Shown here piece by piece: positions 37,356 to 56,965 of a stretch of DNA of 64,000 nt. The DNA is from a virus, in IMG/VR virus record IMGVR_UViG_3300044991_001618, positions 48,964 to 112,963 of that record. One strand, 5' to 3'. The translations under genes were made by a program, and so were the position numbers. Below the pieces are notes generated by a model, which was not told the DNA's origin, made no database searches, and saw nothing but the letters and a program-made list of their open reading frames with translations. Positions within the stretch are counted from its first letter, which is position 1. Each line of letters opens with the position of its first letter.

Positions 37356-37389
37356 ATTTATATATTTTAGAGTTAAACAATTCACTTTG

Positions 37390-37397: not shown

Positions 37398-37401
37398 ATA
37401 A

Positions 37402-37430: not shown

Positions 37431-37492
37431 CTAATTCTTAAATTTTTTTATAAGTTGCCAAATCTCTATTTATTTTCTTGATTTGGCAGGAT

Positions 37493-37882: not shown

Positions 37883-37901
37883 TTTAATTTTTTTTAAATT
37901 A

Positions 37902-37928
37902 GATTGGGGGCATTATCTACCCCCAATC
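37902..37928. terminator. Hairpin downstream of the TonB-dependent receptor gene
   Basis: GATTGGGGG-cattatcta-CCCCCAATC. Confidence 0.6.
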
Positions 37929-37937
37929 ATTATTTGT

Positions 37938-40900
37938 TTAGTTAAAGATGTATCTCAATCCCAATTGCGCTTGCCAAGCATTACCTACACTAATTGTTTT
38001 AACAAAAGTTTTGTCTAATAGTTGTGTTGAACCATCAACAACTCTTGTTGCCATTCTGTATGTTGGAACACCATCAGCAGAAACAGATGCTACTGTTAAT
38101 GGACTTGCTGTACCGAAACTACCAGATGTTGTAGAATATCCAACACCCCAAGCATTATTCAATATATTTCCAAAGTTAAGAATATCTGCTCTAAATTGCA
38201 AGGTATTTCTTTTTCCTTTTACATTAACATATACTTCTTGAACCGCAGATAAATCAACTCTTGTTAACCAAGGGAAGTATCCACCATTTCTTTCAGCGTA
38301 TGTTCCTTTGCGTGATGATAAATATTCATCATTTGAAATTAGATTGTTTAACGCCTCTTGTTGTTGTGCTGGGGTGAAAGTCTTTCCACCAGCAGTAAGT
38401 GTTGCAAAAGTGATTTCTGTTGCATTATTTGGCACATAAATGAGGTCGTTAATTTGTCCATCACCATTTAAGTCATTTCCATAAATGTAACTGATTTTAC
38501 TACCACTTGCAGATGTTGCACCTAATGTTAATTCAGTTGAACCTCCAAATTTACCGCCATAGTTAATTCTATAATTAACATATCCAATAAATCTATGACG
38601 TAAATCATTATCTGTGAATGATGGGGCTAAGAAATTTTGGCCACCAACACCAGGTGCATTTGCCTGAACTGTACTACCTACTGATTGTAGATCTGTTGAC
38701 CTTGCGTTTGTATAGCCAACCATACCACCTAAACCATTAACCGCTGGTTTCTCAATCTTTGTAGTAAGAGCATAAGAATAACCCCTATCTGTATTTGTTA
38801 ATAAGAAAGCATTTGAAATTGTTGGATTTAAGAATCTTGCTATTGCAACTGTATTTGCAGCACCAGAACCTGAACTTGTAACACCTGATGCTGGATAACG
38901 TGGTCTTCCATCTGACAAGAATCTATCAGCACTTTTTAAATTTGCGTCAATATAACGTAGTCCAGATAATGTTTTACCATAAATACCTTCAACTGTTCCG
39001 ATTAATCCAAATGGTAATTTTTGGTCAACTGCAATATTTGATTTCCAAACTGATGGGTATTTTAAATCCTCACTTGATGCGTTAATAACATAAGGTGGTA
39101 ATTTTGTAATATCAGTTGTTGTTGGTGCAAATCTGCTTGGGTCAGTTGTGAATGGGTATGCAGTTGTATTTGTTACGTTAATAACCGCTGTATTAACACC
39201 ATTATTACCCAGTTGATTAGATACCAAAACTTGTGGAACTCTTGAAACAAAGATACCCGTTCCACCCCTAACTTGGGTTGTTTGGTCACCATTAACATCA
39301 TAATTAAATCCAATTCTTGGGGATAACAATAATGTTGGTTTTGGGAATGCACTTGTGTTAATTTTTGTTGGTTGACCATTTTTATCTCTGAATGTTAAAC
39401 CACCAACAACTGGATTATAAAAATCTTCCGCAGTTGAATTGTCATACATAACAACATCCCCACGCAAACCAACTGTTAATTTGACTAAATCAGTTAATTC
39501 ATACTCATCTTGTGCATAAGCACTAAATGTGGAAACTTTTAAAGATTGTAATGGTTCAATACCCCCAGGTAATAATGAGTATCTTAGATTGTAACGGTTT
39601 AGAGTTACTGGTGATACTGGATTACTTGGGTTGTTTTTAAATTCTAATGCTGCTTTTTTGAAATCATCAATAGAATTATAAACATAAACACCATTTGATG
39701 CTGGGAAGAAAACGTTATTTGATTGGAAATATTCATAAGCCAAACCAAATGTGAAGTAATGCTTACCAGATGACAAATTAAAATTGTTTGTTAAATTTAA
39801 AGTACTGTAATTAAGTTTGTTGTTTGGTGTGAAGGGGTCAAAGCCAACAGTTGTATAGGTTGTACCATCTTTAAGAATATCTATTGTTGGAAATAAATCT
39901 GTACGATATCTTCTATCTTCAATTTGTTTATTGAATGTAGCAATAAAGTTGTTTGACTTCTTTGAAGAAAGAATTGAGTTTAATTCAAATGCAACAGAAC
40001 GAGTATTATCTTGGATGATATATCCAGTGTTTTCCCCAGAGATAGCAAATGCTGAATTTTGACGATTACCATTACCAGCTGTATTGCTACTGTTTGAACT
40101 ACTAATAACTTGTTCTGATTCTGAATTATGATGAGAATAACGAAGAGATGCTTTGTGCTTTCTACTAATGTTATAATCTAAACGAACAAGTCCTTTTGTA
40201 CTTTTAACATCATTATTAAAGTTATCAAGTGAACCAAGGTCATAATTAAAGTTTGTTTTCATAAATGAGGACAAATCTTTTAAATCACTTTCTGTTACAC
40301 GAGATACGTTACCAGTAGCACCTGGCTTGTTTGTTTGCCAACTTAATGCTGGATTTGTTCCAGTAAATTGTTCAGCATTAACAAAAATAAATAATTTGTT
40401 TTTGATGATTGGTGCACCAATTCTAAAACCAGTTGTTTTTTCATCTAGGAAGATTGGTGGTAGTTTGATACCATTTACAGTTTTACCTACTAAATCACTT
40501 GACCTAAATAATCTGTAAAATGAACCAGAAATATCATTTGTACCAGAACGAGTTACTGCATTAACACCTGCACCAACAAAGCCAGATTGTCTAACATCAA
40601 AGGGGGCAATATTTAATTGTACCTCTTCAACAGCATCAAGAGAAATTGCGGTTGTTCCTGTTCTACCACCAGCAGCAGCAGATGACCCAAGACCAAATCC
40701 ATTATTAAATACTGAACCATCAATTGTGAAATTGTTAAAACGGCTGTCTTGCCCACCAAATGAACGACCATTACCATAAGCATTATACTTTGTAATGTCA
40801 TCAATTGTTCTACCAATTGTTGGTAAACTATTAATTGTACTTGAACTAAATTGAGTTGATGCCCCAGTTCTTTGACTAGAAAAAATGGCATTTTTGTTTG

Positions 40901-41282
40901 CCGTAATTGTTACCCCTTGCAAATCATAAGATGATTCAACTAAGGAAAAATTCAATGTTTTGGTTGTTCCCAAATTTAATATAACATTGGATTGGGTTTT
41001 TGTGGCATATCCAACATAACTAACTGTTATGTTATAAGGGCCACCAACACGCATCCCTGGAATTCTATATGTACCATCAATATCAGTTGATGTACCATAA
41101 CTTGTTCCAGATGGTAAGTGAACAGCCTCAATGGTTGCACCAACCAAAACCTCACCTTTTGGGTCACTTGTTGGTACTGAAGGTGTTGTTACCACACCAG
41201 TTATTGCTGAAGTTGTTACTTGAGCATAACTCATACTAAACGTCATAAATGTTAATAATAACGTTTTAAAAATGTTTTTCAT
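37938..41282 (-). CDS. TonB-dependent outer-membrane receptor (Oar-like, N-terminal carboxypeptidase-regulatory-like domain)
   Basis: Signal peptide, [25 protein letters not shown], plug ([30 protein letters not shown]), [10 protein letters not shown]-terminal QLGLRYIF. Confidence 0.92.
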
Positions 41283-41410
41283 AGTAAAATTGTTTTGTTT
41301 AAAAATTTTAATTTATTATAAATAAGACTTTACAAGTATAGCCAAACAAAATATTTTAGGCAAGTTTTTTTTGAATTTATATTTTTCATATATTTATTTA
41401 TAAATATAAT

Positions 41411-41785
41411 ATGAAATTCTATATAAAGAAAGGTGCAGATTTACCTATATTAAAAGTTGAACCAATTAAGGATGGTAGGTCAGATTACAAAAAATTTATG
41501 GAGGATTTGGAGTCATCTACCATATTATTTTCTATGATTAACACAGAAAATAATTCATATAAAATCACAAATAGTGAAGCATATTTAGTTGCCAAAGAAA
41601 CAACAGAACCAACCCCAAATGTGGAATACTACATATATTATCAATTTAAGAAAAGAGAAACAAATACACCTGGCATATATAAAGGTGAATTTTTAATTAG
41701 GAATGAAGATGGGGACCTCATCTTGCCTTTAAGAGAAGAATTAACTATTATTATTTTAGATTCGTTTATTAAGAAGTTTAATTAA
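41411..41785 (+). CDS. Hypothetical protein, BppU-like beta-sandwich
   Basis: FYIKK...P.L, Y.F...ET..PG.YKGEF, LP pattern. Confidence 0.45.
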   Translation: MKFYIKKGADLPILKVEPIKDGRSDYKKFMEDLESSTILFSMINTENNSYKITNSEAYLVAKETTEPTPNVEYYIYYQFKKRETNTPGIYKGEFLIRNEDGDLILPLREELTIIILDSFIKKFN

Positions 41786-41817
41786 AACTTTTATATCTTA
41801 CCCCTAAAATAATTAAT

Positions 41818-44496
41818 ATGATAAGTAGTCAAGAAATTGAGGAGTTTCTTAATGGTTCTGATCCAGAAGAACATATTGTTGCTATTGAATATGACTTTAT
41901 GTCTAATTGTGTCTATAAGATAAAAGAAATTCCCAATAAAGGAAAACAAATTGTCAAAGATACTTTTACCGCATTTTGTTGGGTGGGTAATTTAAATTCA
42001 TTGAATTTCTACAATAAGTCAAAGGCTTTGCAAAAGGAAGCAATGACCAAGCATAGTATTATTATAACAAAATTAAGGACAGATGAGCATCCAAGATTGG
42101 AACATGGAATGAAATTTATGGTTCAGTCATTAAAGGGTTATAGAAATTTAGCTGCTTTCTTTAAGGAAGGGGGTTTAGACCCAAAGAGTGAAGTTGGGAG
42201 AACCAAAATTATTATGCTACCCCCGGTTGACCAATATCTCATATCCAAAGGTAAAAGATTATTTAAAGGGTTTGATTCTTATGATGATATAACAAGGCTT
42301 GTATTTGACTTAGAAACCACAGCATTAGAACCTACTGATGGTAGAATATTTATGATTGGAATTAAAACCAATAAAGGTTACTCCAGAATCATAGAGTGTA
42401 TTAATCCAGAGGATGAGGCAAATGGTATTATTGAATTTTTTAAAGTTATTGATGAAATTAAACCAACCATTATTTCAGGATACAATTCAGCAACGTTTGA
42501 CTGGGAATGGATTTTCAAAAGATGTGAGATATTAAAGATACATGCTCAAACTGCGTGTAAGTCATTAAACCCAACAAAATCATTCACAAGAAGGGATTCT
42601 ATGCTAAAATTAGGGGGTGATGTTGAGAAATACATGCAGACCTCTATTTGGGGATATAACGTTATTGATGTTATTCATTCAGTAAGAAGGGCACAAGCAA
42701 TCAATAGTGATATCAAATCTGCTGGTCTTAAATACATTACAAAATATATAAATGCAGAAGATGCTGATCGTGTATATATTGAACACACCAAGATTGGTAA
42801 AATGTATCAAGAGAAAGAAGAATATTTTCTTAATATAAATAATGGAAAATATAAATTAGCAACAGATTATCCTGACCTTGATATCAAATTTCCAAAAGTA
42901 TATAAGCGAGTTACAGGTGATAAACTTGTTGAAGCATATCTTGATGATGACTTGGAAGAAACAATGAGAGTTGATTCAGAATTTAGTCAAGCATCTTTCT
43001 TATTGGCAAAGATGGTTCCATTACCTTTTGAAAGGATATACACAATGGGAACAGCAGGATTATGGAAGACATTGATGTTGGCTTGGTCATATAATAATCA
43101 GTTGGCTGTTCCCCAAAGTGAGGATAAAAGAAACTTTGTGGGCGGTTTATCCAGATTGGTTAAGGTGGGGTATTCAAAGAATATCTATAAACTTGACTTT
43201 TCGTCCCTATATCCATCCATACAATTGGCTCATGATGTATTCCCATCTTGTGACATAACTAGCGTTTTAGAAGGTATGTTAAAGTTTTTTAGAAATGCAA
43301 GGATAGATTATAAGAATTTGGCAGAAGAATGGAAGGATAAGGATCCTAAGATTGCTGCAACTTATGATAACAAGCAATTACCAATTAAAATTTTCATAAA
43401 CTCTTTATTTGGTTCATTATCAGCACCAGCAGTTTTCCCCTGGGCTGAAATGGATAAAGGTGAACAGATAACTTGTACAGGTAGATTATATTTAAGGCAT
43501 ATGATTAAATTCTTTATGAATAGAGGTTATGTTCCTTTAGTATGTGATACGGATGGTGTTAACTTTTCAGCAACAGATGATTTTAGCAATAGGGAATATA
43601 TTGGAAAAGGATTAAACTGGAAAGTTAAAGAAGGTAAGATTTACAAAGGTATATATGCTGATGTTGCAGAATACAATGATTTATATATGAAAAAGGAGAT
43701 GGCTCTGGATTTGGATGGTCATTGGTTATCTTGTGTTAACTTTGCAAGAAAAAACTATGCCATTATGAAAAATGATGGTAAAATAAAGTTGACAGGAAAT
43801 ACAATAAAATCAAAGAAACTTCCCCAATACATTGAAAGATTTATTGATGTTGCTGTTAAGTTATTGCTTGAAGGCAAAGGAAAAGAATTTATTGAAGAAT
43901 ATTATAATTATTTTGAAAAGGTTTATAATAAGGAAATTCCCCTAATTGAAATTGCAAACAAGGCAAGGGTTAGACAGAATGTTAAAGACTATGTAAAAAG
44001 GTCAAAGACATTAAATAAAGCAGGAAGTACCACAAGTAAGATGGCTCATATGGAGTTAATCATAAAGGAAAAATTACATGTTAATCTTGGGGATATTATA
44101 TATTATGTAAATAATGGAACAAAACAATCGCACGGGGATGTGTCAAAAACAAAAGATGGTATTAAATTAAATTGCTATTACATTGACCAAAATGTGTTTG
44201 AAAAGACCCCTGATTTGACTGGGGAATATAATGTACCAAGAGCAGTTGTAACTTTTAACAAAAGAATAAGCCCATTATTGGTGGCTTTTAGTCCAGAGAT
44301 TAGGGATAGGATTCTTATAAAAGACCCTGCTGATAGGCAATTCTTTACAACAGAAGAATGTAAATTGATTAATGGTATTCCTTATGCACAGAAGGATCAA
44401 GATGATTTAAATGATGTAATGACAATATCAGAAGATGAGGTTAAATTCTGGGAAAAAATAAATGTGAATCCCAATCTAATATATGAAAATGTTTAA
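41818..44496 (+). CDS. Family B DNA polymerase with 3'-5' exonuclease
   Basis: FDLETT, GYNSATFDW, DFSSLYPSI, KIFINSLFG, DTDG, KNYA; no intein evident. Confidence 0.95.
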   Translation: MISSQEIEEFLNGSDPEEHIVAIEYDFMSNCVYKIKEIPNKGKQIVKDTFTAFCWVGNLNSLNFYNKSKALQKEAMTKHSIIITKLRTDEHPRLEHGMKFMVQSLKGYRNLAAFFKEGGLDPKSEVGRTKIIMLPPVDQYLISKGKRLFKGFDSYDDITRLVFDLETTALEPTDGRIFMIGIKTNKGYSRIIECINPEDEANGIIEFFKVIDEIKPTIISGYNSATFDWEWIFKRCEILKIHAQTACKSLNPTKSFTRRDSMLKLGGDVEKYMQTSIWGYNVIDVIHSVRRAQAINSDIKSAGLKYITKYINAEDADRVYIEHTKIGKMYQEKEEYFLNINNGKYKLATDYPDLDIKFPKVYKRVTGDKLVEAYLDDDLEETMRVDSEFSQASFLLAKMVPLPFERIYTMGTAGLWKTLMLAWSYNNQLAVPQSEDKRNFVGGLSRLVKVGYSKNIYKLDFSSLYPSIQLAHDVFPSCDITSVLEGMLKFFRNARIDYKNLAEEWKDKDPKIAATYDNKQLPIKIFINSLFGSLSAPAVFPWAEMDKGEQITCTGRLYLRHMIKFFMNRGYVPLVCDTDGVNFSATDDFSNREYIGKGLNWKVKEGKIYKGIYADVAEYNDLYMKKEMALDLDGHWLSCVNFARKNYAIMKNDGKIKLTGNTIKSKKLPQYIERFIDVAVKLLLEGKGKEFIEEYYNYFEKVYNKEIPLIEIANKARVRQNVKDYVKRSKTLNKAGSTTSKMAHMELIIKEKLHVNLGDIIYYVNNGTKQSHGDVSKTKDGIKLNCYYIDQNVFEKTPDLTGEYNVPRAVVTFNKRISPLLVAFSPEIRDRILIKDPADRQFFTTEECKLINGIPYAQKDQDDLNDVMTISEDEVKFWEKINVNPNLIYENV

Positions 44497-44914: not shown

Positions 44915-46033
44915 TTATATTACATAAATTTGTCTTGGGAAAGCGTTAAATTTTAATTGTTTATTTAAGTTTTCTGCAATAAGTGCTTCTTTTTCCATTT
45001 GTTTTTCAGGTTTTAATCTTTCCAATCTTGCCAATAATTCTTCAATAAGTTTTGCTTTTTCATCTTTCCCTTCAGTTATTAATGATTCATAATCTAACTT
45101 TAACTCTGAATCAGGGACTTTTATTGCTCCACTATACTTTCCCCTAACTCTACCCAAACTCTCTTTTACGTAAGCTGTAAACCACCTTCTTACCCAATGT
45201 TTTGCTGGTTGGTTTAACTTATCCCAAGTTAATTCACTAAATGGGACATCTGATGGTAATTTAATAATATCTGGGTTATCTTCCAAACACTTTCCACGGC
45301 TATCACCATCCACATCATAATACCAATACCAAATTTGTTTTCCAACATATGAGGAGTAATTTCCCCAGTTAAATTTACCACCTGGTGTATTATATATATG
45401 AATTGCTTTTTTACCATCTGGTAATCCTGTTATTCTATAAGTTAATGAACCTCCAAGAATTCTTGTTAATATATTTGCCGATTGCATTCTGAGTAAATAA
45501 TCAAAACCTGACATCATAAAATAGGATCCTGTATTTCCCATTTGAGCAAAACCAGCGTCTGATGCACCCAATCCAATACCTCCAAATCCAAAACCACCAG
45601 CACCACCTAAACCAAATGCACTAAATGCTTGGTTGCTATACCATAATAATTCATTCACCTCTCGGCCAGCAGGAATTTCATACAATTGTTGATTTTTTTC
45701 CAATGTAATATAATCTTTTTGCAAAACCCAAGGACCCCCAGATTGCAATCCAACAATTTTTGAATAAGCATATTCATATTGCTTTTCAAAATCCATTGTT
45801 CTTGTAATTAAAGCATTTGCAACAGATTTTTCGCTCATATTAAGATTAACCAAATTAACCCATTGGGATTCGGTTAGCCAATCAAGCATATATTGTTCAT
45901 AATCTTGAACGGATAATTCCATTAAGGAATCCATCATTTCATCAGTTATCTCAACACCCCTTAATGGTGCACCAAGTAAATGACGAATTCTTGTGTAAAT
46001 TTGCGTTCTTTCTGGCTCGGCTATTACTGACAT
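44915..46033 (-). CDS. Putative neck/head-completion protein (T4 gp13-like)
   Basis: RHLLGAP..VEITDE, WVRRW..A..KE.LGRVRGKY.G...P...L.LD. Confidence 0.7.
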   Translation of the reverse strand: MSVIAEPERTQIYTRIRHLLGAPLRGVEITDEMMDSLMELSVQDYEQYMLDWLTESQWVNLVNLNMSEKSVANALITRTMDFEKQYEYAYSKIVGLQSGGPWVLQKDYITLEKNQQLYEIPAGREVNELLWYSNQAFSAFGLGGAGGFGFGGIGLGASDAGFAQMGNTGSYFMMSGFDYLLRMQSANILTRILGGSLTYRITGLPDGKKAIHIYNTPGGKFNWGNYSSYVGKQIWYWYYDVDGDSRGKCLEDNPDIIKLPSDVPFSELTWDKLNQPAKHWVRRWFTAYVKESLGRVRGKYSGAIKVPDSELKLDYESLITEGKDEKAKLIEELLARLERLKPEKQMEKEALIAENLNKQLKFNAFPRQIYVI

Positions 46034-46060
46034 ATTTCTTTTATATATAAATATAAGAAA

Positions 46061-46762
46061 TTATTCTTTTGGCTCATTATTATTTGCATTATCATATAAT
46101 TCAAGAACAAAATCCCAATTTATATAATTCCAGAAGTTATGTATATACTCATCTCTTTTGTTTTGGTATTTGAGATAATAGGCATGTTCCCATAAATCCA
46201 ATCCCAATATTGGAAATCCACCACCTTTAATGACATTCATAAGGGGATTATCTTGGTTTGGGGTGGTGATAATTTTTAATGTATTATTTTTTGTTGCAAC
46301 AAGCCAGACCCATCCTGATCCAAAATGGCTTTTTGCCTTTTCTTCAAATTTTGTTTTAAATGAATTAATTGAGCCAAAACTTTTTATTATTTTATCTTTT
46401 AATTCTTTTGGGATATTCTTTTTGGTTGGTGATAACATATTCCAAAACAAAGCGTGATTAAATGCTCCACCTGCATTATTTCTAATTGTTTTGTTGAATT
46501 TGCTTATATTTGTTATTATCTGTTTTAAATCATAATTTGATTTATTATCTTTTAATGCTTTATTCAATTTATCAACATAACCTTTATAATGTTTATTATA
46601 ATGAATATCCATTGTTTTCTCATCAATAAAAGGTTTTAATGAGGCATACGAATAAGGGAGTTTTTCAATTCCAACCTTTTTCATTTCATTAAGTAAAAAA
46701 TTAACATTATCTTTGTATATCCTTGATATTATTTCTTCTTTGATTGTTTCAAGTATTTTCAT
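46061..46762 (-). CDS. sodA: Mn/Fe superoxide dismutase (Mn-type signature) with N-terminal extension
   Basis: LPYSY..L.P.ID, HYNKH, NNAGG.FNH, FGSGW.WL, NQDNP, DLWEHAYY. Confidence 0.93.
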   Translation of the reverse strand: MKILETIKEEIISRIYKDNVNFLLNEMKKVGIEKLPYSYASLKPFIDEKTMDIHYNKHYKGYVDKLNKALKDNKSNYDLKQIITNISKFNKTIRNNAGGAFNHALFWNMLSPTKKNIPKELKDKIIKSFGSINSFKTKFEEKAKSHFGSGWVWLVATKNNTLKIITTPNQDNPLMNVIKGGGFPILGLDLWEHAYYLKYQNKRDEYIHNFWNYINWDFVLELYDNANNNEPKE

Positions 46763-46770
46763 AAATTATT

Positions 46771-46787
46771 ATATTTATAATAAATAT
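46771..46787. promoter_or_regulatory. Two opposed ATATTTAT motifs (putative late promoters) in the 32-bp gap between SOD and the LRR array
   Basis: ATATTTAT on + at 46771-46778 and on - at 46780-46787; same motif precedes the sheath and neck genes. Confidence 0.5.
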
Positions 46788-46794
46788 TTGTATA

Positions 46795-47280
46795 ATGGAT
46801 AATAGCACAATAAACAACATACTAAACTTTTTGGTAACTAATGAAGGTAAAAAATTACCAGAAAAATGGGTTCAATTTAAATTGGAAAATAATATACCAT
46901 TAACAAAAGAAGAATTGAAAGTTGGGGGTAATTTGGATTTATATGGCTCAAAAATAGAATCATTACCAGAAGAGTTATATGTTGCAGGAACATTGGTTTT
47001 ATCAAATTGTAAAAATTTAACATCTTTACCAAAAAGATTAAAAGTTGGGGGGGATTTGCATTTAGACTATACAAATATAACATCATTACCAGAAGGATTA
47101 TATGTTGGTAGGCATTTATATTTAATAATGTGCAAAAATTTAACATCATTACCAAAAGGATTGAAAGTTGATGGTGGAGTAAATATAAAACTCACAAATT
47201 TAATTAAATACACTAAAGAGGAATTAAGAGAAATGATTGAGCCAGATGGTTATATAACAGGAAAAATAATTAGAAGTTAA
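46795..47280 (+). CDS. LRR array gene 1 (about 4 repeats)
   Basis: 21/22-aa repeats LPxGLxVGGxLxLxxxxIxS with N- and C-caps. Confidence 0.88.
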   Translation: MDNSTINNILNFLVTNEGKKLPEKWVQFKLENNIPLTKEELKVGGNLDLYGSKIESLPEELYVAGTLVLSNCKNLTSLPKRLKVGGDLHLDYTNITSLPEGLYVGRHLYLIMCKNLTSLPKGLKVDGGVNIKLTNLIKYTKEELREMIEPDGYITGKIIRS

Positions 47281-47927
47281 TGGAAAAAGAAACACTAAAA
47301 AACATATTTAAATTCATTGAAGAAAAGGGTGAGCATAGAACACCATTTTTATGGAAATGGAAAAATAATATACCATTAACAGAAGAAGACTTAAATGTTA
47401 ATGGTAATTTGGATTTAAGGCATTCAAATATAACCTCATTACCAGAAGGATTAAAAGTTTGGGGTAATTTGATTTTAGAGTATTCAAAAATAGCCTCATT
47501 ACCAGAAGGATTGAAAGTTAAAGGTAGTTTGATTTTAAGTGCTACCAAAATAACATCATTACCAAAAGGATTGGAAGTTGGTGGTAGTATATTTTTGAAT
47601 GAGAGCCTCATAAAGGCATTACCAGAAGGATTGAAAGTTAAAGGTAGTTTGGATTTGAGTAATACCAAAATAACATCATTACCAAATGGATTACAAGTTA
47701 AAGGTCAGTTGAGTTTGTTTGGTACAAAAATAAAATCATTACCAGAAGGATTGGAAGTTGGTGGTTGTATATATTTGTCTTTCAGCACCATAAAGACATT
47801 ACCAAAAGGATTAAAAGTTGGAGGTACTTTGCAAATAGGTCAGACTCGATTAACAAGATATTCAGATGAGGAATTAATGAAAATGATTGAGCCAGGATTT
47901 ATAACAAATAGTATAATAAGATTATAA
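47280..47927 (+). CDS. LRR array gene 2 (about 7 repeats)
   Basis: Same repeat; TAATG overlap with gene 1. Confidence 0.88.
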   Translation: MEKETLKNIFKFIEEKGEHRTPFLWKWKNNIPLTEEDLNVNGNLDLRHSNITSLPEGLKVWGNLILEYSKIASLPEGLKVKGSLILSATKITSLPKGLEVGGSIFLNESLIKALPEGLKVKGSLDLSNTKITSLPNGLQVKGQLSLFGTKIKSLPEGLEVGGCIYLSFSTIKTLPKGLKVGGTLQIGQTRLTRYSDEELMKMIEPGFITNSIIRL

Positions 47928-48646
47928 TGGATAATAACACAATAAAAAAAATATTAGATTTTCTTGAAGAAAAAGAAAACAAAAAACATTCAGAAAGAGA
48001 TAATCTTGTTTGGAAATTAAGATTTGGATACCCCCTAACAAAAGAAGATTTGAATATTAAGGATACCTTGTATTTAAATAATACAAATATAACCTCATTA
48101 CCAGAAGGATTGAAAGTTGGTAAGAGTTTGGATTTAAGAGTATCAAATATAACCTCATTACCAGAACGATTGAAAGTTGGTTGGAATTTGAATTTAAATA
48201 ATACAAAAATAACCTCATTACCAGAAGGATTGAAAGTTGGTAGGAATTTGTATTTAGAAAATTGCAAAAGTTTAACCTCATTACCAGAAGGATTGGAAGT
48301 TGGGGGTGATTTGGATTTAAGTGGTTCAGGAATAGAAACATTACCAAAAGATTTGAAAGTTGAGGGCAACTTAATTTTAATAGGATCAAAAATAACCTCA
48401 CTACCAGAAGGATTTAATGTTGTTGGTGTTTTGTGTCTTTATAATACAGAAATAGAATCATTACCAAAAGGATTAAAAGTTGGGGTTCAGTTGGATTTAA
48501 GGTTTACAAAAATAACCTCATTACCAAGAGGTTTGGAAGTTGGTGGTATTTTAAGAATAGACCACACAGACCTAGACAATTATTCAGATGATGATTTAAG
48601 ACAAATGGTTAAACCTGGATTTATAAAAGGTGAAATATATAGGTAA
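47927..48646 (+). CDS. LRR array gene 3 (about 8 repeats)
   Basis: Same repeat; first 108 bp identical to gene 6. Confidence 0.88.
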   Translation: MDNNTIKKILDFLEEKENKKHSERDNLVWKLRFGYPLTKEDLNIKDTLYLNNTNITSLPEGLKVGKSLDLRVSNITSLPERLKVGWNLNLNNTKITSLPEGLKVGRNLYLENCKSLTSLPEGLEVGGDLDLSGSGIETLPKDLKVEGNLILIGSKITSLPEGFNVVGVLCLYNTEIESLPKGLKVGVQLDLRFTKITSLPRGLEVGGILRIDHTDLDNYSDDDLRQMVKPGFIKGEIYR

Positions 48647-49113
48647 TGGATAATAACACAATAAAAAACATATTTAAATTCCTTGAAGATGAAGGAGAAC
48701 ATAGAGCACCTTTTATGTGGAAATGGAAAAATAATATACCATTAACAGAAGAAGACTTAAATGTTGAAAGTGATTTGAATTTCTATAGATTAGAAATAAA
48801 ATCATTACCAAAAGGATTAAAAATCCATGGTCATTTGGGTTTATATAAAACAAATATAACTTCATTACCAAAAGGCTTGGAAGTTGGGGGCGATTTGAAT
48901 TTAAATGAAACAAAAATAAAATCATTACCAAAAGGATTGAAAGTTGGTGGCAATTTATATTTAACATATTGTGGAAAATTAACTTCATTACCAGAAGGGT
49001 TAAAAGTTGGTGGTGATTTGTATATACATGCCACACCATTAACAAAATATTTAGATGATGATTTAAGACAAATGGTTAAACCTGGATTTATAAAAGGAAT
49101 AATATATAGGTAA
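48646..49113 (+). CDS. LRR array gene 4 (about 4 repeats)
   Basis: Same repeat; N-cap shared with gene 2, C-cap shared with gene 3. Confidence 0.88.
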   Translation: MDNNTIKNIFKFLEDEGEHRAPFMWKWKNNIPLTEEDLNVESDLNFYRLEIKSLPKGLKIHGHLGLYKTNITSLPKGLEVGGDLNLNETKIKSLPKGLKVGGNLYLTYCGKLTSLPEGLKVGGDLYIHATPLTKYLDDDLRQMVKPGFIKGIIYR

Positions 49114-49778
49114 TGGATAATAACACAATAAACAAGATACTAAACTTTTTGGTAACTAATGAAGGTAAGAAATTACCAGGAACATGGATTAAATTTAAAT
49201 TGGGAAATAATATACCATTAACAAAAGAAGAATTAAATGTTAAGGGTAATTTGAATTTGAGTGATTCACAAATAACCCAATTACCAGAAGGATTGAAAGT
49301 TGGGGGTGATTTGTATTTAAATAGAACAAATATTAAATCATTACCAGAAGGATTAAAGGTTGGTGGTAATTTATCATTGCTAAAATGTAAAAATTTAACT
49401 TTATTACCAAAAGGATTAGACGTTGGGGGTTGGTTGGATTTAAGAGGAACAAATATAATCTCATTACCAAAAGATTTGCAAGTTGGGGGTGGTTTGGATT
49501 TGGAAGGCACAAATATAAAACAACTCCCAAAAGATTTATATGTTAGTGGTAAATTGGATTTATCATTCACAAAAATAACATCACTACCAGAAGGATTATA
49601 TGTTGGCAAGAATTTATTTTTAAATAATTGTTATGATTTAAAATCATTACCAAAAGGATTGAAAGTTGGTGGTGGAGTAAATATAACTGATGCAAGTTTA
49701 ACTAAATACACTGAAGAGGAATTAAGGAAAATGATTGAACCAGGATTTATAAAAGGAGATATAATAAGATATGGATAA
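49113..49778 (+). CDS. LRR array gene 5 (about 7 repeats)
   Basis: Same repeat; N-cap type shared with gene 1. Confidence 0.88.
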   Translation: MDNNTINKILNFLVTNEGKKLPGTWIKFKLGNNIPLTKEELNVKGNLNLSDSQITQLPEGLKVGGDLYLNRTNIKSLPEGLKVGGNLSLLKCKNLTLLPKGLDVGGWLDLRGTNIISLPKDLQVGGGLDLEGTNIKQLPKDLYVSGKLDLSFTKITSLPEGLYVGKNLFLNNCYDLKSLPKGLKVGGGVNITDASLTKYTEEELRKMIEPGFIKGDIIRYG

Positions 49779-50190
49779 TAACACAATAAAAAAAATATTA
49801 GATTTTCTTGAAGAAAAAGAAAACAAAAAACATTCAGAAAGAGATAATCTTGTTTGGAAATTAAGATTTGGATACCCCTTAACAAAAGAAGAGTTAAATC
49901 AAAAAGGTAATTTGCATTTATCATTTACAAAAATTACATCCTTACCAAAAGGATTGAAAGTTGGTGGGTTTTTATATTTATTTATGTGTAAACATTTAAC
50001 ATCTTTACCAGAAGGATTGAAAGTTGGAGGTATTTTGAGTTTGAATCATTCAAGTATAACCTCATTGCCAAAAGGGTTAGAAGTTGGGGGTGACTTACAG
50101 ATTGAAGGTACATCCTTAACAAAATATTCAAATGAGGAATTAAGGAAAATGATTGAGCCAGGATTTATAAAAGGAGATATAATAAGATAA
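49771..50190 (+). CDS. LRR array gene 6 (about 3 repeats)
   Basis: Same repeat; N-cap of gene 3, C-cap like gene 5. Confidence 0.88.
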   Translation: MDNNTIKKILDFLEEKENKKHSERDNLVWKLRFGYPLTKEELNQKGNLHLSFTKITSLPKGLKVGGFLYLFMCKHLTSLPEGLKVGGILSLNHSSITSLPKGLEVGGDLQIEGTSLTKYSNEELRKMIEPGFIKGDIIR

Positions 50191-50192
50191 CA

Positions 50193-50735
50193 ATGGATAA
50201 TAACACACTAAAAAACATATTTAAATTCCTTAAAAATAAAGAAGGGAAAAAACATAGACAACAAGACACATTATTATGGAAGTTAATATTTAATGAGCCA
50301 TTAACAAAGGAGGAATTAACTATTGATGGTGATTTGACCGTATCAAATACAATAATAACTTCATTACCAGAAGGATTAAAAGTTTCTGGTGGTTTGGATA
50401 TATCTTACACAAAAATAACCTCATTACCAAAAGATTTAAATGTTAAGGGTGATTTATATTTAAGAGATTCAAAAATAACCTCATTGCCAGAAGGTTTGAA
50501 AGTTGGTGGTAATTTAAATTTAGGTTGGACAAAAATGGCATCATTACCAGAAGGATTAAAAGTTGTGGGTGATTTGGATTTATATTGGACAGACATAACC
50601 TCATTACCAAAAGGTTTGAAAGTTGGTGGTGATTTGGATATAAGAGAAACAGAATTAATAAGATATTCAGATGATGAATTAAGAGAAATGATTAAACCAG
50701 GTTTTATAGAAGGAGATATAATAAGATATGGATAA
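50193..50735 (+). CDS. LRR array gene 7 (about 5 repeats)
   Basis: Same repeat and caps. Confidence 0.88.
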   Translation: MDNNTLKNIFKFLKNKEGKKHRQQDTLLWKLIFNEPLTKEELTIDGDLTVSNTIITSLPEGLKVSGGLDISYTKITSLPKDLNVKGDLYLRDSKITSLPEGLKVGGNLNLGWTKMASLPEGLKVVGDLDLYWTDITSLPKGLKVGGDLDIRETELIRYSDDELREMIKPGFIEGDIIRYG

Positions 50736-51180
50736 TAGCACATTGAAAAACATATTTAAATTCCTTGAAGATAAGGAGGGATATAATGCCCCATTCATAT
50801 GGAAATGGAAAAATAATGAACCCTTAACAGAAGAAGATTTGAATGTTAAAGGTGATTTGGATTTATCAGAAAATGAAGAAATAGAATCATTACCAGAAGG
50901 ATTAAAAATTGAAGGTAATTTACTTTTATATGATTCCTCTGTTGAATTACCAAAAGGATTAGAGGTTGGTGGTAATTTACATATGACTCATAGTATATAT
51001 GATTTACCAAAAGGATTGAAAGTTGGCGGTGATTTATATCTATCAGGTATTGGACACCGTTTTGAAGATATTGAGGACAGAGTAAAGAAAATTATTTACC
51101 CTGGGTTTATAAAAGGTATGATACTTGCTGATGACTATGATCCATATGATGACTATAACGCATTTGATAATGATGATTGA
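50728..51180 (+). CDS. LRR array gene 8 (about 3 repeats, acidic tail)
   Basis: Shortened repeats; C-terminal DDYDPYDDYNAFDNDD. Confidence 0.85.
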   Translation: MDNSTLKNIFKFLEDKEGYNAPFIWKWKNNEPLTEEDLNVKGDLDLSENEEIESLPEGLKIEGNLLLYDSSVELPKGLEVGGNLHMTHSIYDLPKGLKVGGDLYLSGIGHRFEDIEDRVKKIIYPGFIKGMILADDYDPYDDYNAFDNDD

Positions 51181-51197
51181 TTTAAATTAAAAATATA

Positions 51198-51863
51198 ATG
51201 GAAAAAGAACAACTAAAAAACATACTTAATTTCCTTGAAGAAAAAGAGAATAAAAATAAACCATTTGTTTGGAAATTAATGAATAATGAAACATTTACAG
51301 ATGATGAATTAAACATTAAAGGTGATTTGGATTTATTTGAAGAAAATATAACTTACATACCAGAAGGATTAAAAGTAGAGGGTGATTTGAATTTAAAAAG
51401 TTGTAAAAGATTAAAATCTTTACCAGATAATTTATATGTTGGCGGTGAGTTGAATTTGGAAGGTACAAGTATAAAACAAATCCCAAAAGGTTTATATGTT
51501 GGTGGTGATTTTAATTTAGTCGCTTTAAAAATAAAATCATTACCAAAAGACTTAAATGTTGATGGTGGTTTGGATTTGGCTTATTGTACAGACTTGACTT
51601 CACTACCTAACAATTTGAAAGTTGGTGGCTATTTAAGTCTATACAATACAAAAATAACCTCATTACCAGAAGGACTACAAGTTGGTTGGGATTTGTATTT
51701 AGATTACACAATGATAAACACATTACCAAAAGGCTTACAAGTTGATCGTGATTTATCTATTACAAATAGCCCATTAGCAAAACTTTCAGATGAAACCATA
51801 TTAAGTATGATAGAACCAGATGGTTATATAAATAGGGATATAATAAGAGAAGATAATGGATAA
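51198..51863 (+). CDS. LRR array gene 9 (about 7 repeats)
   Basis: Same repeat, more diverged. Confidence 0.88.
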   Translation: MEKEQLKNILNFLEEKENKNKPFVWKLMNNETFTDDELNIKGDLDLFEENITYIPEGLKVEGDLNLKSCKRLKSLPDNLYVGGELNLEGTSIKQIPKGLYVGGDFNLVALKIKSLPKDLNVDGGLDLAYCTDLTSLPNNLKVGGYLSLYNTKITSLPEGLQVGWDLYLDYTMINTLPKGLQVDRDLSITNSPLAKLSDETILSMIEPDGYINRDIIREDNG

Positions 51864-52326
51864 AACAACAATTAAAAGAATAATGGATTTCCTAAAATCA
51901 GAGGAAGATAAATCATCATTAAAATGGATATTATTGCATAACATTGAGTCAATGCCTGAAAAGTATTATCACAAGGGAGCATTAGAGTTGTATGGTGAAT
52001 TGATAACTAAATTGCCAAAAATTTTAGAAGTCACTGAACAATTAGATTTAAGTTATTCAACAATAACAGAATTACCAGAAAAACTTATAGTTGGTGATGA
52101 TTTATATTTATATGATTGCAAGGATTTAAAATATTTACCAGATAACTTATATGTTGGGGGAGAATTACATCTTCAGAAGTCTGGAATAAAAGAATTTCCC
52201 CAAGGAATGATTGTAAACGGTACTATTTGGTTAAGGAATTCACCATTAGGTCGTTATAATGTAAAAGAAATACAAGCAAAATTAGAGGAAAGAAATTGCA
52301 AAGTACATGGAAGTATAATGGTTTAA
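51856..52326 (+). CDS. LRR array gene 10 (about 4 repeats, most diverged)
   Basis: ITELPEKLIVGDDLYL, YLPDNLYVGGELHL. Confidence 0.82.
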   Translation: MDKTTIKRIMDFLKSEEDKSSLKWILLHNIESMPEKYYHKGALELYGELITKLPKILEVTEQLDLSYSTITELPEKLIVGDDLYLYDCKDLKYLPDNLYVGGELHLQKSGIKEFPQGMIVNGTIWLRNSPLGRYNVKEIQAKLEERNCKVHGSIMV

Positions 52327-52332
52327 TGAGTG

Positions 52333-52563
52333 CTAATGGCACTCATTTTCAAAAAACTCATTATCAAATACAAAACTATCATCATTCTCACCAATGAACT
52401 TGGTAAAATCTTCTAGCAATTCTATTTTGGAATTTAGTACTTCCATTTTCTGTGCAAGAATTGCACCGTTTTTTTCAAATTCACCCATATCATCCAGAAT
52501 TTCTTTGTGCTTCTCAATGATAAAATTCTGTAAATCTGAGGTTTTAATTACGTGTAATTTCAT
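52333..52563 (-). CDS. Hypothetical small protein
   Basis: Start placed at MKLHVIK; TACCTTTG (TAnnTTTG) at 52603-52610 upstream. Confidence 0.65.
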   Translation of the reverse strand: MKLHVIKTSDLQNFIIEKHKEILDDMGEFEKNGAILAQKMEVLNSKIELLEDFTKFIGENDDSFVFDNEFFENECH

Positions 52564-52635: not shown

Positions 52636-54402
52636 TTATTTTGTTTTTATTTTCATATTTAATATCTGGGTTAAAATATCTTCTGTAGTATCAGTTTCAA
52701 ATAAGTTATCCCCAAGAACAGTTGATATTATTTTTTTCTTTCTATCCAACATATCATATATAATTCCCTCAATGGTGTTTTCAAATATGGGATATAATAC
52801 AGAAACTGAATTCTTTTGTCCAATTCTATATGCCCTATCTTCTGCTTGACTATGATCTGCTGGAACAAAGGATAAATCATTAAAGATAACAACATTTGCA
52901 CTTGTCAATGTAATACCAACGCCAGCTGCTTTTATATTGCCAACAAAAACCTTTATCTTATCATTTGTTTGAAATTCATCAACACTCTCTTGTCTTTGTT
53001 TTGCTGTTGAACTACCATCTAATTTAACAGCAATTTTATTAAAATGTTCATATATTTTATTTAATGAGTTTGTGAAATTTGAGAAAACAATAATCTTTTT
53101 CTCTTGCTCCAATGTATTCTCAATAAATTCTATAGTACTCTTAATTTTTTCATCTGCAATTATTTGTCTAACTTTCATTAGTTTTGAAAATTGAACACTC
53201 AAAGATTTTGATTCTTTTGGGTTATTTTTAACCCATTCAAAATACTCCCCCATAACATCCTCATATTCTTTTGATTTTAATCTTAAATAAATTGGTGTTA
53301 TTATTTTTTCTGGTAAATCTAATACATTCTCTTTTAGTCGCCTTAATAATAATGGTGACGTTCTTTCCCTTAACTCATCCAAATTTGACGCACCGCTCAC
53401 ATTCCATACCTTATTCATTCCAACACTAAACTGATATCCAGCACAGTATCTTTTAACATAGGCCATCCAGTTTTTTGATACGGGGCTATCAACCAATGAT
53501 AATAAATTAAAATAATCAATCGGTCTTGATGTTAATGGCGTTCCAGTCAATAACCATATTTTATTAATATCTTTGCAAATATCATTTATCAATTTTGTTC
53601 TCGATGCTTGGGGGGATTTAATATAATGACATTCATCAATTATAACCAAATCAAATTTTGATTTCTGAATTAAAGATTCTTCTTTAGTTTTTAATGAATG
53701 AAAGTTTTTAATAATATCATAATTAATGATTACAAAGTCAGCAGAATCTTCATATTTTTTTCCCTCACAAATATAAATTTCTTTGTTTGAATAATTTTCA
53801 ATTTCTCTTTTCCAATTTTGTTTTAAACTTGCTGGACAAATAATTAAAGTTTTACTTGGTTTAGCTTCAATTGAGGCAATAATTGCTGAACTAGTTTTAC
53901 CCAAACCCATATCATCTGCTAATATGAATTTATCATTCTCAAGCAATTTTATAATTGCTTCTTTTTGATGTTCAAAGGGTATTCTATGGGAATACTTTTC
54001 ATAATCAATAACAACATTTTTATTTGTCTTATCCACAATAATTCCATCTTTTGGAATCCAATAAAGGGTTAATCTATCATTATCAAAAAATCTACCAAGA
54101 ATGTGGTATGATTTTTCCTTCTCAACCAATAACTTTTCAATCCATATTTTTTGGGGAACACTTGTTAATAATTTATCATCAGCAATCATTTTTGCAAAAT
54201 AGATATCAAGGTCAACCCACTTTCTGGCAATCTTTGGTCTTGTCTGGTTAAATAATGAAATGTATTCAACTTGGCTTGGAGTCAAATAAAAATTTGGGTT
54301 TTCCAAAGCCATATTCCTTAAACCATTTAAATAATCATTTTGACCATTATATGATTTTAATAACAACAACGCCTCGTCCTCACTTATCTTTTTTTTGTTC
54401 AT
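52636..54402 (-). CDS. SNF2-family (SMARCAL1/HARP-like) helicase/ATPase
   Basis: LADDMGLGKT, CPASL..NW, DECH, LTGTP, RRLK, GVGITLT, QAEDRAYRIGQ. Confidence 0.92.
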   Translation of the reverse strand: MNKKKISEDEALLLLKSYNGQNDYLNGLRNMALENPNFYLTPSQVEYISLFNQTRPKIARKWVDLDIYFAKMIADDKLLTSVPQKIWIEKLLVEKEKSYHILGRFFDNDRLTLYWIPKDGIIVDKTNKNVVIDYEKYSHRIPFEHQKEAIIKLLENDKFILADDMGLGKTSSAIIASIEAKPSKTLIICPASLKQNWKREIENYSNKEIYICEGKKYEDSADFVIINYDIIKNFHSLKTKEESLIQKSKFDLVIIDECHYIKSPQASRTKLINDICKDINKIWLLTGTPLTSRPIDYFNLLSLVDSPVSKNWMAYVKRYCAGYQFSVGMNKVWNVSGASNLDELRERTSPLLLRRLKENVLDLPEKIITPIYLRLKSKEYEDVMGEYFEWVKNNPKESKSLSVQFSKLMKVRQIIADEKIKSTIEFIENTLEQEKKIIVFSNFTNSLNKIYEHFNKIAVKLDGSSTAKQRQESVDEFQTNDKIKVFVGNIKAAGVGITLTSANVVIFNDLSFVPADHSQAEDRAYRIGQKNSVSVLYPIFENTIEGIIYDMLDRKKKIISTVLGDNLFETDTTEDILTQILNMKIKTK

Positions 54403-54486
54403 AATTTATATCAATATTATTTAATAATAATAAATAAGTGTTAAATTATCAACTAAATGATATTTATTTTAGATAAAAGAATATAT

Positions 54487-54999
54487 ATGGCAAAAATAGT
54501 TCCTATAACCAGAATTGGTAAATTTTTTGGCGCAGATGATTATAATTTGGATATTGATTTGGGTATGGAATATATGGGTGGTGATTTAAATATGACCATT
54601 GTTTTATATAGAATTGATAGAAAAAAAACAAAAAAAGATGATGTTTATGGTGAATCGCCAACCGATGGAATTGTTTTTATGCCGCCAATTGAAATAACAG
54701 GATTGGTTCAAATAGTTGAGTCAACAATGAAACAATTGGGTAATTCCAAAATTGAACAAAAAGAACCTGGTAATCTTAAATTATCATTATACCAAAAGCA
54801 ATTGGATGATTTAAATGTTGAAATATTAAAAGGTGATTATTTGGCTTATTATGTGACAGAAGATAAAGTTAGATACTATTCTGTTAATGATGATGGAATT
54901 GTTAATATGGATAATAAACATACATATGCTGGTTATAAACCATTCTATAGAACTATTATAGCCACATTTGTTAATAAAGATGAATTTAGAGGAAAATAA
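54487..54999 (+). CDS. Putative neck/head-closure protein (T4 gp14-like)
   Basis: LYRID...T..DDVYGE pattern; lies upstream of tail genes; start placed at MAKIVP. Confidence 0.55.
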   Translation: MAKIVPITRIGKFFGADDYNLDIDLGMEYMGGDLNMTIVLYRIDRKKTKKDDVYGESPTDGIVFMPPIEITGLVQIVESTMKQLGNSKIEQKEPGNLKLSLYQKQLDDLNVEILKGDYLAYYVTEDKVRYYSVNDDGIVNMDNKHTYAGYKPFYRTIIATFVNKDEFRGK

Positions 55000-56915: not shown

Positions 56916-56965
56916 TAGTTTTTGATTATTTTTTAGATATTTATATGAATAAATAAAAAATAACA

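Follow-up and report, generated by a model that had tools for sequence, protein, structure and literature searches.

Positions 46795-52326 of the window, the 64-kb stretch of the virus record IMGVR_UViG_3300044991_001618 analysed here, are filled by ten intact plus-strand genes, mostly overlapping, which encode LRR proteins of 139-239 aa and sit within the interval that runs from an SOD gene to an SNF2 gene. All ten open reading frames (10/10) were found at the coordinates and lengths listed by the first-pass annotation. Neighbouring genes overlap by TAATG at four junctions and by ATGGATAA at three, and are separated by 2 nt and 17 nt at the other two; the genes form a single unit between a conserved 32-nt upstream region and a conserved 3' hairpin, as listed below with orthologues in close relatives (L010-L012 among them).

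46763..46794, plus strand: candidate promoter region of 32 nt, containing TATATTTATA, which separates the divergent SOD gene from LRR gene 1
46795..47280, plus strand: LRR gene 1, 161 aa, 4 LP-anchored units; closest protein in four relatives at most 58%, no close orthologue
47280..47927, plus strand: LRR gene 2, 215 aa, 7 units; orthologue in L011 (92%)
47927..48646, plus strand: LRR gene 3, 239 aa, 8 units; no close orthologue in four relatives
48646..49113, plus strand: LRR gene 4, 155 aa, 4 units; orthologue in L012 (91%)
49113..49778, plus strand: LRR gene 5, 221 aa, 7 units; orthologue in L012 (94%)
49771..50190, plus strand: LRR gene 6, 139 aa, 3 units; orthologue in L011 (95%)
50193..50735, plus strand: LRR gene 7, 180 aa, 5 units; orthologue in L010 (88%)
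50728..51180, plus strand: LRR gene 8, 150 aa, 3 units of 19 aa, acidic C-terminal tail; no close orthologue
51198..51863, plus strand: LRR gene 9, 221 aa, 7 units; in all relatives (88-94%); protein chosen for modelling
51856..52326, plus strand: LRR gene 10, 156 aa, 4 units, divergent caps; in all relatives (81-87%)
52325..52347, plus strand: candidate terminator, a 10-bp hairpin followed by UUUUC, directly 3' of gene 10

The upstream region is identical in the window and in relative L009, despite a different first LRR gene, and would serve as the promoter region of the array; a sigma-70 scan returned fewer sites than in shuffled sequence and was uninformative. The hairpin, with a folding energy of -12.5 kcal/mol and a z-score of -4.9 that was equalled by none of 200 shuffles, is kept in all five relatives and is the putative terminator.

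The array is one of four in the 113-kb record, which is only 36% complete and holds 32 intact LRR paralogues, so that the family takes up about a tenth of it or more. A 270-kb relative (90% complete) contains 57 matches in at least eight clusters, with 28-57 matches per relative, and the family is widespread across viral metagenome contigs, with more than 2000 database homologues and nearest Atlas clusters that are 97-100% viral. The source phage is a distant T4-like myovirus of roughly 300 kb. Among cultured phages, blastn with the locus returned nothing related, and tblastn detected the family only in Edwardsiella phage Edno5, together with a weak match in EBPR podovirus 1. The window contains no tRNA genes and thus gives no clue to the host from that side; no evidence was found for the Bacteroidota host that had been proposed. 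A literature search on LRR proteins in phages (jumbo or huge phages, tandem paralogues, anti-defence) returned no paper on such arrays.

Repeat architecture and predicted fold

Each of the ten proteins consists of an N-cap, a run of repeats and a C-cap, as originally described, and ends some 25 residues past its last repeat. The array holds 52 LP-anchored units, in line with the earlier estimate of about 50, and 42 of these are complete internal units; because 30 of them measure 20 aa, ten (a Cys variant) 21 aa and two (in gene 8) 19 aa, the period is 20/21 aa, and the previously given 21/22 aa is one residue too long. At the DNA level, the 60/63-nt unit is present in 46 copies. The unit reads xGxLxLxx[T/S]xIxSLP, or xLxLxxCxxLxSLP in the 21-aa variant, with the first L of the LRR motif replaced by G8 and V7 standing one residue before it. 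The proteins contain 0-3 Cys each, those in the repeats being the framework Cys of the 21-aa units.

Sequence variation within the unit is sharply partitioned. Entropy is at least 3 bits at positions 10, 12, 14, 15 and 17, which are positions 3, 5, 7, 8 and 10 of LxxLxLxx(N/T/C)xL, and at most 0.9 bits at L1, P2, L5, V7, L11, L13 and I18, with L11, L13 and I18 nearly invariant across units. The variable residues are thus not scattered, as the first-pass annotation had proposed to check, but occupy the five places where an LRR strand and turn face outward, and they are predicted to form one exposed face, a placement based on their alternation with the buried L11/L13, the DSSP strand at L11-x12 and the textbook LRR register rather than on solvent exposure.

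The AlphaFold2 model of the gene 9 protein is an LRR solenoid (pLDDT 92.3, pTM 0.85) of regular two-strand coils, each coil contributing a strand at L11-x12 to a ladder, and the caps are predicted as helices plus a hairpin; residues 1-20 are modelled at a lower pLDDT of 61-72. Among solved structures, Vibrio FlrP (8z5u chain 0) comes closest, with Z 22.6 and an rmsd of 2.8 A across 174 residues, and phmmer matches it as well (E 2.4e-20, 30% identity); other solved LRR proteins score Z 13-15, and IpaH, SspH1 and VLR structures are in the Foldseek list. The confident model and the solved homologue agree on the fold that had been assigned, and on the repeat motif and the predicted solenoid we place the ten proteins in the LRR superfamily. 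Their Pfam LRR scores of 13-19 bits lie below the gathering thresholds of 20.6-27, which reflects the atypical unit rather than another fold; P0064, a relative with the same repeat class, passes both LRR_4 (47 bits) and LRR_1 (30 bits).

NCBIfam returned local matches to the SlrP, SspH2 and Xop models over the LRR part only, at 14-41 bits against cut-offs above 1000, and no NEL E3 ligase or other effector domain follows the LRR in any of the ten proteins. Searches of PHROGs gave only weak matches to families without assigned function, with no tail-fibre or decoration family among them, and PADLOC gave no match on the sequence. Longer LRR proteins in the databases (336-413 aa), considered as fused forms, were set aside, as they carry other, unannotated C-terminal domains. 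The N-termini (for example MEKETLKNIF and MDNNTIKKIL), as read by eye, are hydrophilic or amphipathic and have no hydrophobic signal-peptide core, in agreement with the earlier reading that signal peptides are absent.

Turnover and signs of selection among close relatives

At this locus, close relatives with flanks of 96-99% identity differ in gene number, having 2, 7, at least 4 or at least 5, and array content, far from invariant, ranges from 2 to 10 genes when the window is included. Only genes 9 and 10 are common to all relatives, and the extra genes of the relatives have no close copy in IMGVR_UViG_3300044991_001618. Caps appear to be exchanged as well: the N-cap DNA of genes 3 and 6 is 99% identical and includes an exact match of 108 nt, the longest exact repeat between any two genes of the array, whereas their C-caps are only 68% identical. 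Modules average 65% DNA identity. Since the array DNA is repetitive, one may ask whether misassembly has produced it, an explanation to which we give next to no credence: the units are 60-80% identical with no exact between-gene match beyond 108 nt, all ten frames are open with proper caps, and four other, independent metagenome assemblies contain orthologous genes in matching order, with genes 4 and 5 adjoining in L012 as in the window and genes 9 and 10 adjoining in all four.

The differences that separate nearest-orthologue pairs are concentrated on the predicted face, where amino-acid differences affect 36 of 213 codons; in the framework they affect 21 of 646 (odds ratio 6.1, p 2e-10). For genes 2 and 4, the repeat-region amino-acid changes are scattered along the protein, and every one of them is at a face position (8/8 between gene 2 and its L011 orthologue), while across 13 orthologues of gene 9 variable columns make up 18 of 39 at the face and 20 of 119 in the framework (p 4e-4). 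The dN/dS comparison suggested by the first-pass annotation bears out its expectation, with an omega of 4.2 for the face (43 non-synonymous to 2 synonymous changes), 0.63 for the framework, 0.50 for the caps and 0.04-0.15 for the flanking genes; the face value exceeds 1 by virtue of a low dS inside the repeats (0.025), the within-codon test alone gives p 0.019, and on the scale of the flank dS (0.14-0.74) a face dN of 0.085 would be no higher than neutral. The framework and cap omegas are also high for a constrained scaffold.

Two alternatives to selection on the face can be weighed against these figures. The first, that the family spreads by recombination as near-neutral or selfish DNA with its exposed positions drifting, would account for the fairly high framework and cap values (0.5-0.63) and for a face dN below neutral on the flank scale. 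It fits poorly, however, with the 32 of 32 copies that are intact with hydrophobic core and caps preserved, with a 43:2 ratio above that of neutral drift as judged from within-gene dS, with the retention of genes 9 and 10 in every relative, and with the persistence of the family across many viral contigs, and we regard it as improbable. The second invokes a diversity-generating retroelement that writes the variable positions by targeted hypermutation, and draws on the abundance there of GAT, AAT, TAT, AGT and CAT codons, all reachable from AAT. Yet AAA, GAA, TGG and ATG, which adenine mutagenesis of AAY cannot give, are common at the same positions, orthologue differences include third-base changes, the roughly 150 distinct units have no template copy, and modules average 65% identity. 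As neither the record (36% complete) nor relatives of 90% and 67% completeness yielded a reverse transcriptase (PF00078), and the codon set is at odds with adenine templating, we rejected this mechanism as very unlikely. That the point substitutions on the face were fixed by positive selection is somewhat better than an even bet, as one part of the overall explanation that follows.

A candidate binder repertoire and its possible site of action

A fixed scaffold with one exposed face that changes rapidly looks like an inherited library of candidate binding proteins. We accordingly read the ten genes, at a probability of roughly 55%, as one transcription unit of an inherited, diversifying repertoire of small, effector-less LRR solenoids with predicted binding faces. 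The five variable residues of each repeat (10, 12, 14, 15 and 17) would line up on one side, so that 4-9 stacked repeats could give every protein a separate binding surface, and this surface may diversify by three routes: positively selected point substitutions on the face, changes in repeat number, and homologous recombination in conserved framework or cap DNA, which would swap caps and add or remove whole genes. The idea of a phage binder library put forward in the first-pass annotation is upheld here as regards the fold, the site of variation, the signature of selection, gene turnover between relatives and the mosaic make-up of the caps; binding itself is what we infer, and cytoplasmic solubility is one possibility beside carriage in the virion. 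The proteins may bind targets that differ between host strains and either block or tether them, host defence components being the first guess.

The Edno5 homologue, encoded in the early region of this temperate phage with cI on one side and exo/recT on the other, hints at an intracellular role. As a separate observation, array 2 of the record lies inside the head-gene block, starting 1 nt past the stop of the head-maturation protease gene and ahead of the major head protein, and this points to a role in the virion rather than a purely cytoplasmic one; four relatives also have LRR genes at this position, in differing numbers. A ATATTTAT-type motif is found 20-32 nt upstream of many first-in-operon genes, and arrays 1 and 4 have it in common with the sheath, adaptor and protease genes.

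Taken with the T4-like character of the phage, these features raise the possibility that the LRR proteins are late products, synthesised alongside the head proteins, that travel inside the capsid and are injected together with the phage DNA like the T4 internal proteins, with the N-terminal amphipathic helix, modelled at lower pLDDT (residues 1-20), as a capsid-targeting leader. This scenario concerns the site of action and is compatible with the binder reading, and we consider it rather unlikely. A T4-type [LI]xE site stands at the leader end in just 15 of 32 paralogues, the leader is confined to LRR proteins within the 113 kb, unlike the T4 targeting sequence, which unrelated cargo proteins have in common, and the pI values run from 4.35 to 9.3 and are thus not uniformly basic. 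A similar helix in bacterial (Aquimarina) homologues and in the Edno5 early-region protein suggests an ordinary N-cap, and the upstream motif may not be specific to late genes, since it also precedes the SOD gene and the gene ahead of DNA polymerase.

To our knowledge, there is no precedent for a virion with at least 40 different small adhesins, and this counts against another placement of the proteins, on the virion surface, where conserved caps would dock on capsid or tail and binding to variable cell-surface structures would broaden attachment or host range. Targets on the host surface would suit the diversifying selection and the rapid turnover equally, the upstream motif is common to structural genes, and phage Goslar offers a model in its paralogues, which have a docking module in common but recognise the host through variable domains that are LRR or beta-helix in some cases (10.64898/2026.04.21.720040). 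Here, however, the entire protein is predicted to be a capped solenoid with no separate docking domain, and PHROGs gave no match to tail-fibre or decoration families; we judge surface adhesins to be a long shot.

Returning to the inherited binder repertoire, a bolder version can be offered tentatively: this lineage of phages of about 300 kb may hold an antibody-like repertoire of at least 40 binders on one scaffold, shaped by positive selection and cassette exchange, that neutralises defence proteins varying between host strains, possibly delivered in the capsid, or recognises competing mobile elements. If true, this would be a recognition repertoire belonging to a virus of bacteria. Most of the counter-defence proteins known from phages are small, unrelated to one another and found singly, and the family suggests another strategy, in which a stable scaffold is kept in many inherited variants whose binding face changes rapidly. 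Should targets be found, each paralogue would offer a natural means of probing a protein of the host or of a competitor, and the small, cysteine-free 20-aa scaffold may serve binder engineering.

Comparison with known systems

FlrP of Vibrio alginolyticus (PDB 8z5u/8z5w/8z60) shares a homologous core and the 20-aa LPxGLxVxGxLxL unit, and is likewise a small, LRR-only protein that acts purely by binding, as we presume the phage proteins do. It has a Sec signal peptide (M1-A19) and is a periplasmic, single-copy structural spacer on the flagellar rod (10.64898/2025.12.04.692373). The phage proteins, in contrast, have no signal peptide, possess their own N-cap and C-cap, and exist in dozens of copies with a fast-changing face. 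The LRR domains of type III effectors (IpaH, SspH1/2, SlrP, YopM, XopL/XopAC) belong to the same 20-aa LRR class ending in LP, as reflected in the local NCBIfam matches (SlrP, SspH2, Xop) and structural Z-scores of 13-14, and in these effectors the LRR domain picks the target. They act in eukaryotic cells, however, whereas the phage proteins carry no NEL ubiquitin-ligase, other effector domain or secretion signal, and the matches are far below family cut-offs.

The T4 internal proteins IPI-III are small and non-essential, IPI* being anti-restriction, and resemble the present family as small proteins of a T4-like phage encoded at loci that differ between close relatives; the fold is unrelated, and the targeting sequence and cleavage site are not conserved here (15/32). 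Lamprey and hagfish VLRs show the same arrangement of cap, variable modules and cap, with a varying module number and diversity on the strand positions, but they are somatically assembled from cassettes, have Cys-rich LRRNT/LRRCT caps, and are secreted or membrane-anchored, whereas each phage variant is a separate inherited gene whose caps have no cysteine knots. Because caps, cellular location and source of diversity all differ, the resemblance is one of design, by analogy, and not of descent. Plant NLR/R-gene clusters (RPP8, PMC6771003) likewise combine tandem LRR genes, unequal crossing-over, exchange between genes and presence/absence variation with positive selection on exposed xxLxLxx residues, although theirs are host immune receptors equipped with NB-ARC and signalling domains, which the solenoid-only phage proteins lack. 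The logic of the R-gene clusters and of the VLRs would thus be the same as that of the array described here, in a virus of bacteria.

The ten-gene array and its phage

The ten consecutive open reading frames for leucine-rich repeat (LRR) proteins, numbered here 5' to 3', lie exactly where the first-pass annotation had placed them and encode products of 139 to 239 aa.

Features of the array and its flanks (window positions, strand, description)
46061-46762, -, Fe/Mn superoxide dismutase-signature (SOD) gene, signature DLWEHAYY in the product
46795-47280, +, LRR gene 1, ORF
47280-47927, +, LRR gene 2, ORF
47927-48646, +, LRR gene 3, ORF
48646-49113, +, LRR gene 4, ORF
49113-49778, +, LRR gene 5, ORF
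49771-50190, +, LRR gene 6, ORF
50193-50735, +, LRR gene 7, ORF
50728-51180, +, LRR gene 8, ORF
51198-51863, +, LRR gene 9, ORF
51856-52326, +, LRR gene 10, ORF
52636-54402, -, SNF2-type helicase, adjoining a small ORF downstream of the array

Successive genes are joined by four TAATG overlaps, three ATGGATAA overlaps and two gaps (2 nt and 17 nt), and both neighbours of the array, the SOD-signature gene on one side and the small ORF with the SNF2-type helicase on the other, are on the opposite strand. The 32-nt region 5' of gene 1 is identical in one relative whose first LRR gene differs, and directly 3' of gene 10 lies a 10-bp hairpin followed by a U-run (folding energy -12.5 kcal/mol, z -4.9), which is kept in five of five relatives. 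We read the ten genes as one transcription unit, with these two elements as its putative promoter and terminator. Across the whole record, a ATATTTAT(A)-type motif precedes the start codon by 20-32 nt in roughly half of the genes with a gap of at least 25 nt in front of them (examples at window 46770-46780, 46010-46020 on the - strand, and 56935-56945), including those for the sheath, adaptor, head protease and SOD as well as LRR arrays 1 and 4; the motif is a candidate phage promoter element, and ATATTTAT-type 7-mers show no overall over-representation in the AT-rich DNA of the record. The helicase beside the array has 588 aa in the window and two relatives and 956 aa in two others (L011:11439-14309; L012:2957-5827).

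The source record, of which the window is the second part, is an IMG/VR virus of 112,963 bp (CheckV completeness 36%) that encodes a terminase, portal, head-maturation protease, major head protein, DNA polymerase and long tail sheath, the last most similar, among cultured phages, to distant T4-like ones (about 30% identity). It holds 32 intact LRR paralogues across four arrays, 22 of them in three arrays outside the window (record positions 8295-11747, 26993-28747 and 34524-41996); a 413-nt gap at 40279-40693 also yields LRR matches and may contain either a remnant or a 33rd gene that starts with a codon other than ATG. A 270-kb relative (90% complete) has 57 LRR matches in at least eight clusters, and other relatives have 12-46 each. 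More than 2000 homologues occur in a large protein database, none with a name; viral members account for 97-100% of the nearest ESM Atlas clusters, the top BFVD hits are entitled 'Leucine-rich repeat [uncultured Caudovirales phage]', and the 20-aa repeat core, without the phage caps, is found in many bacteria (Chlamydiae, Aquimarina, Patescibacteria, Vibrio). Elsewhere in the window, a paralogous pair of glycosyltransferase genes (28055-29305 and 33627-34883, +), both matching phrog_24687 at E ~1e-160, flanks a block of other + strand genes.

Repeat architecture, fold and location of variation

Each array protein begins with a part of about 38-45 aa, continues with units anchored on LPxGLxV and ends in (Y/L)xDxELRxM(I/V)xPGFIxGxIIR. 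The ten proteins contain 52 LP-anchored units, and because the 42 that are complete and internal are mostly of 20 aa (30 units) or 21 aa (10 units), with two of 19 aa in gene 8, the period of 21/22 aa proposed earlier has to be corrected to 20/21 aa. The 21-aa variant has Cys where the 20-aa units have Thr/Ser, and at the DNA level the 60/63-nt unit occurs in 46 copies. Gene 8 (50728-51180, +) stands apart from the other array genes in its 19-aa units, changed C-cap and acidic tail, which ends DDYDPYDDYNAFDNDD (pI 4.35); acidic tails also terminate three paralogues elsewhere in the record.

Gene 9 was modelled with AlphaFold2 from 19 aligned sequences (pLDDT 92.3, pTM 0.85). In the model, three helices at the N-terminus lead into eight regular coils whose short strands fall at x6-V7 and L11-x12, and two helices plus a hairpin make up the C-cap. 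The solved structure closest to the model is PDB 8z5u chain 0 (Z 22.6, rmsd 2.8 A over 174 residues), which phmmer recovers too (E 2.4e-20); other LRR structures, namely SHOC2, Leptospira LRRs, SspH1, IpaH, YopM and internalins, score Z 13-15. This chain is FlrP of Vibrio alginolyticus, a periplasmic LRR protein that has a Sec signal peptide and binds the flagellar rod (10.64898/2025.12.04.692373). Pfam LRR models match the ten array proteins below threshold only; one relative that has this repeat class exceeds the thresholds. In NCBIfam, the models for SlrP, SspH2 and the Xop effectors match locally, over their LRR parts.

Over the 87 twenty-residue units of the whole record, entropy is 3.0-3.6 bits at positions 10, 12, 14, 15 and 17 and at most 0.9 bits at L1, P2, L5, V7, L11, L13 and I18. 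In the register xLxLxx(T/C)x(I/L), the variable positions are 3, 5, 7, 8 and 10 of the classical LRR motif, and since the buried L11 and L13 are interleaved with them, they must, to judge from the repeat pattern and the model, point outward on one face, a placement with which the modelled strand at L11-x12 agrees. The modules are nearly all unique (mean DNA identity 65% over 112; only eight pairs at 90% or more).

Selection and turnover

Four related virus records from other metagenomes carry the same locus; their flanking proteins are 96-99% identical to those of the window, and for 7 of the 10 array genes at least one of these records has an orthologue, at 81-95% identity.

Substitutions in pooled nearest-orthologue pairs (Nei-Gojobori counting; face, repeat positions 10, 12, 14, 15 and 17; framework, remaining repeat positions)
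Face codons: non-synonymous 43, synonymous 2, omega 4.2
Framework codons: non-synonymous 23.5, synonymous 11.5, omega 0.63
Caps: non-synonymous 60.8, synonymous 26.2, omega 0.50
Flanking genes: omega 0.04-0.15

The first-pass annotation had named variable residues that are scattered or buried, with dN/dS well below 1, as evidence against its reading; by the within-gene rate the face codons instead reach an omega of 4.2 (binomial test against neutrality, p 0.019). Amino-acid differences fall on 36 of 213 face codons versus 21 of 646 framework codons (odds ratio 6.1, p 2e-10), and a second, independent set of 13 gene-9 orthologues shows variation in 18 of 39 face columns and in 20 of 119 framework columns (p 4e-4). 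All repeat-region amino-acid changes in genes 2 and 4 are scattered, each at a face position; since the framework codons beside them keep their amino acid, this pattern speaks for point mutation over conversion tracts. Between relatives, dS is 0.02-0.09 in LRR orthologues and 0.14-0.74 in flanking genes (44915-46762, 52636-54999), the SOD-signature product being 97-99% identical among relatives with omega 0.04-0.07; as LRR dS is thus several-fold lower, omega exceeds 1 only against the within-gene neutral rate and not against the flank rate. On these values the shared LRR cassettes look younger than their surroundings, one possibility being a recent spread between lineages.

LRR genes between SOD and SNF2 in the window and four relatives
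Window: 10
L009: 2, orthologues of genes 9 and 10
L011: 7, orthologues of genes 2, 6, 9 and 10 and three others
L012: at least 5, orthologues of genes 4, 5, 9 and 10 and one other
L010: at least 4, orthologues of genes 7, 9 and 10 and one other

Array content, whose invariance among relatives the first-pass annotation had named as refuting its reading, varies from 2 to 10 LRR genes at the same locus, and close copies of the relatives' extra LRR genes are found nowhere in this record. The caps are, by sequence comparison, mosaic: genes 3 and 6 match exactly over 108 nt at the 5' end and have C-caps 68% identical, genes 3 and 4 match exactly over 45 nt within the C-cap, and gene 9 orthologues differ in their first residues (MEKEQ or MDNTT). 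That the array was created by misassembly is unlikely, given that the relatives' records carry orthologous LRR genes at the same locus, that modules average only 65% DNA identity and that no two genes match exactly over more than those 108 nt. A diversity-generating retroelement was considered and rejected, with no reverse transcriptase in the record (36% complete) or in the 90%-complete relative and with variable-site codons that do not fit.

Possible mode of action and known systems

Being bare capped solenoids, the LRR proteins would act most simply by binding, and an arms race with host-variable targets may drive the family, as selection pattern, turnover and family size together would fit. 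The main rival is a role in the virion. Array 2 starts 1 nt past the head protease gene and precedes that for the major head protein (record positions 26290-32746, corresponding to L043:6290-12746), LRR genes occupy the same protease-to-major-head-protein slot in four relatives (G001, G002, G004 and G005) in differing copy number, and arrays 1 and 4 have the upstream ATATTTAT-type motif in common with structural genes. Several observations speak against a T4-type targeting leader: just 15 of 32 paralogues have the (L/I)xE site, such a leader occurs on no other protein of the record, bacterial and Edno5 homologues begin with a similar first helix, and paralogue pI ranges from 4.35 to 9.3. We favour binding inside the cell, where the targets would be host defence components or other strain-variable proteins. 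An intracellular role fits the position of the homologue in the cultured temperate Edwardsiella phage Edno5 (L014:5995-6738, MH898687.1), an early-region gene with cI on one side and exo/recT on the other. Its 247-aa product combines seven near-identical 20-aa units of this class with a C-terminal domain that is different and unannotated.

Plants and jawless fish provide well-known examples of LRR folds, tandem LRR clusters and positive selection at strand positions. Our literature search found no published account of such an LRR family in a phage.
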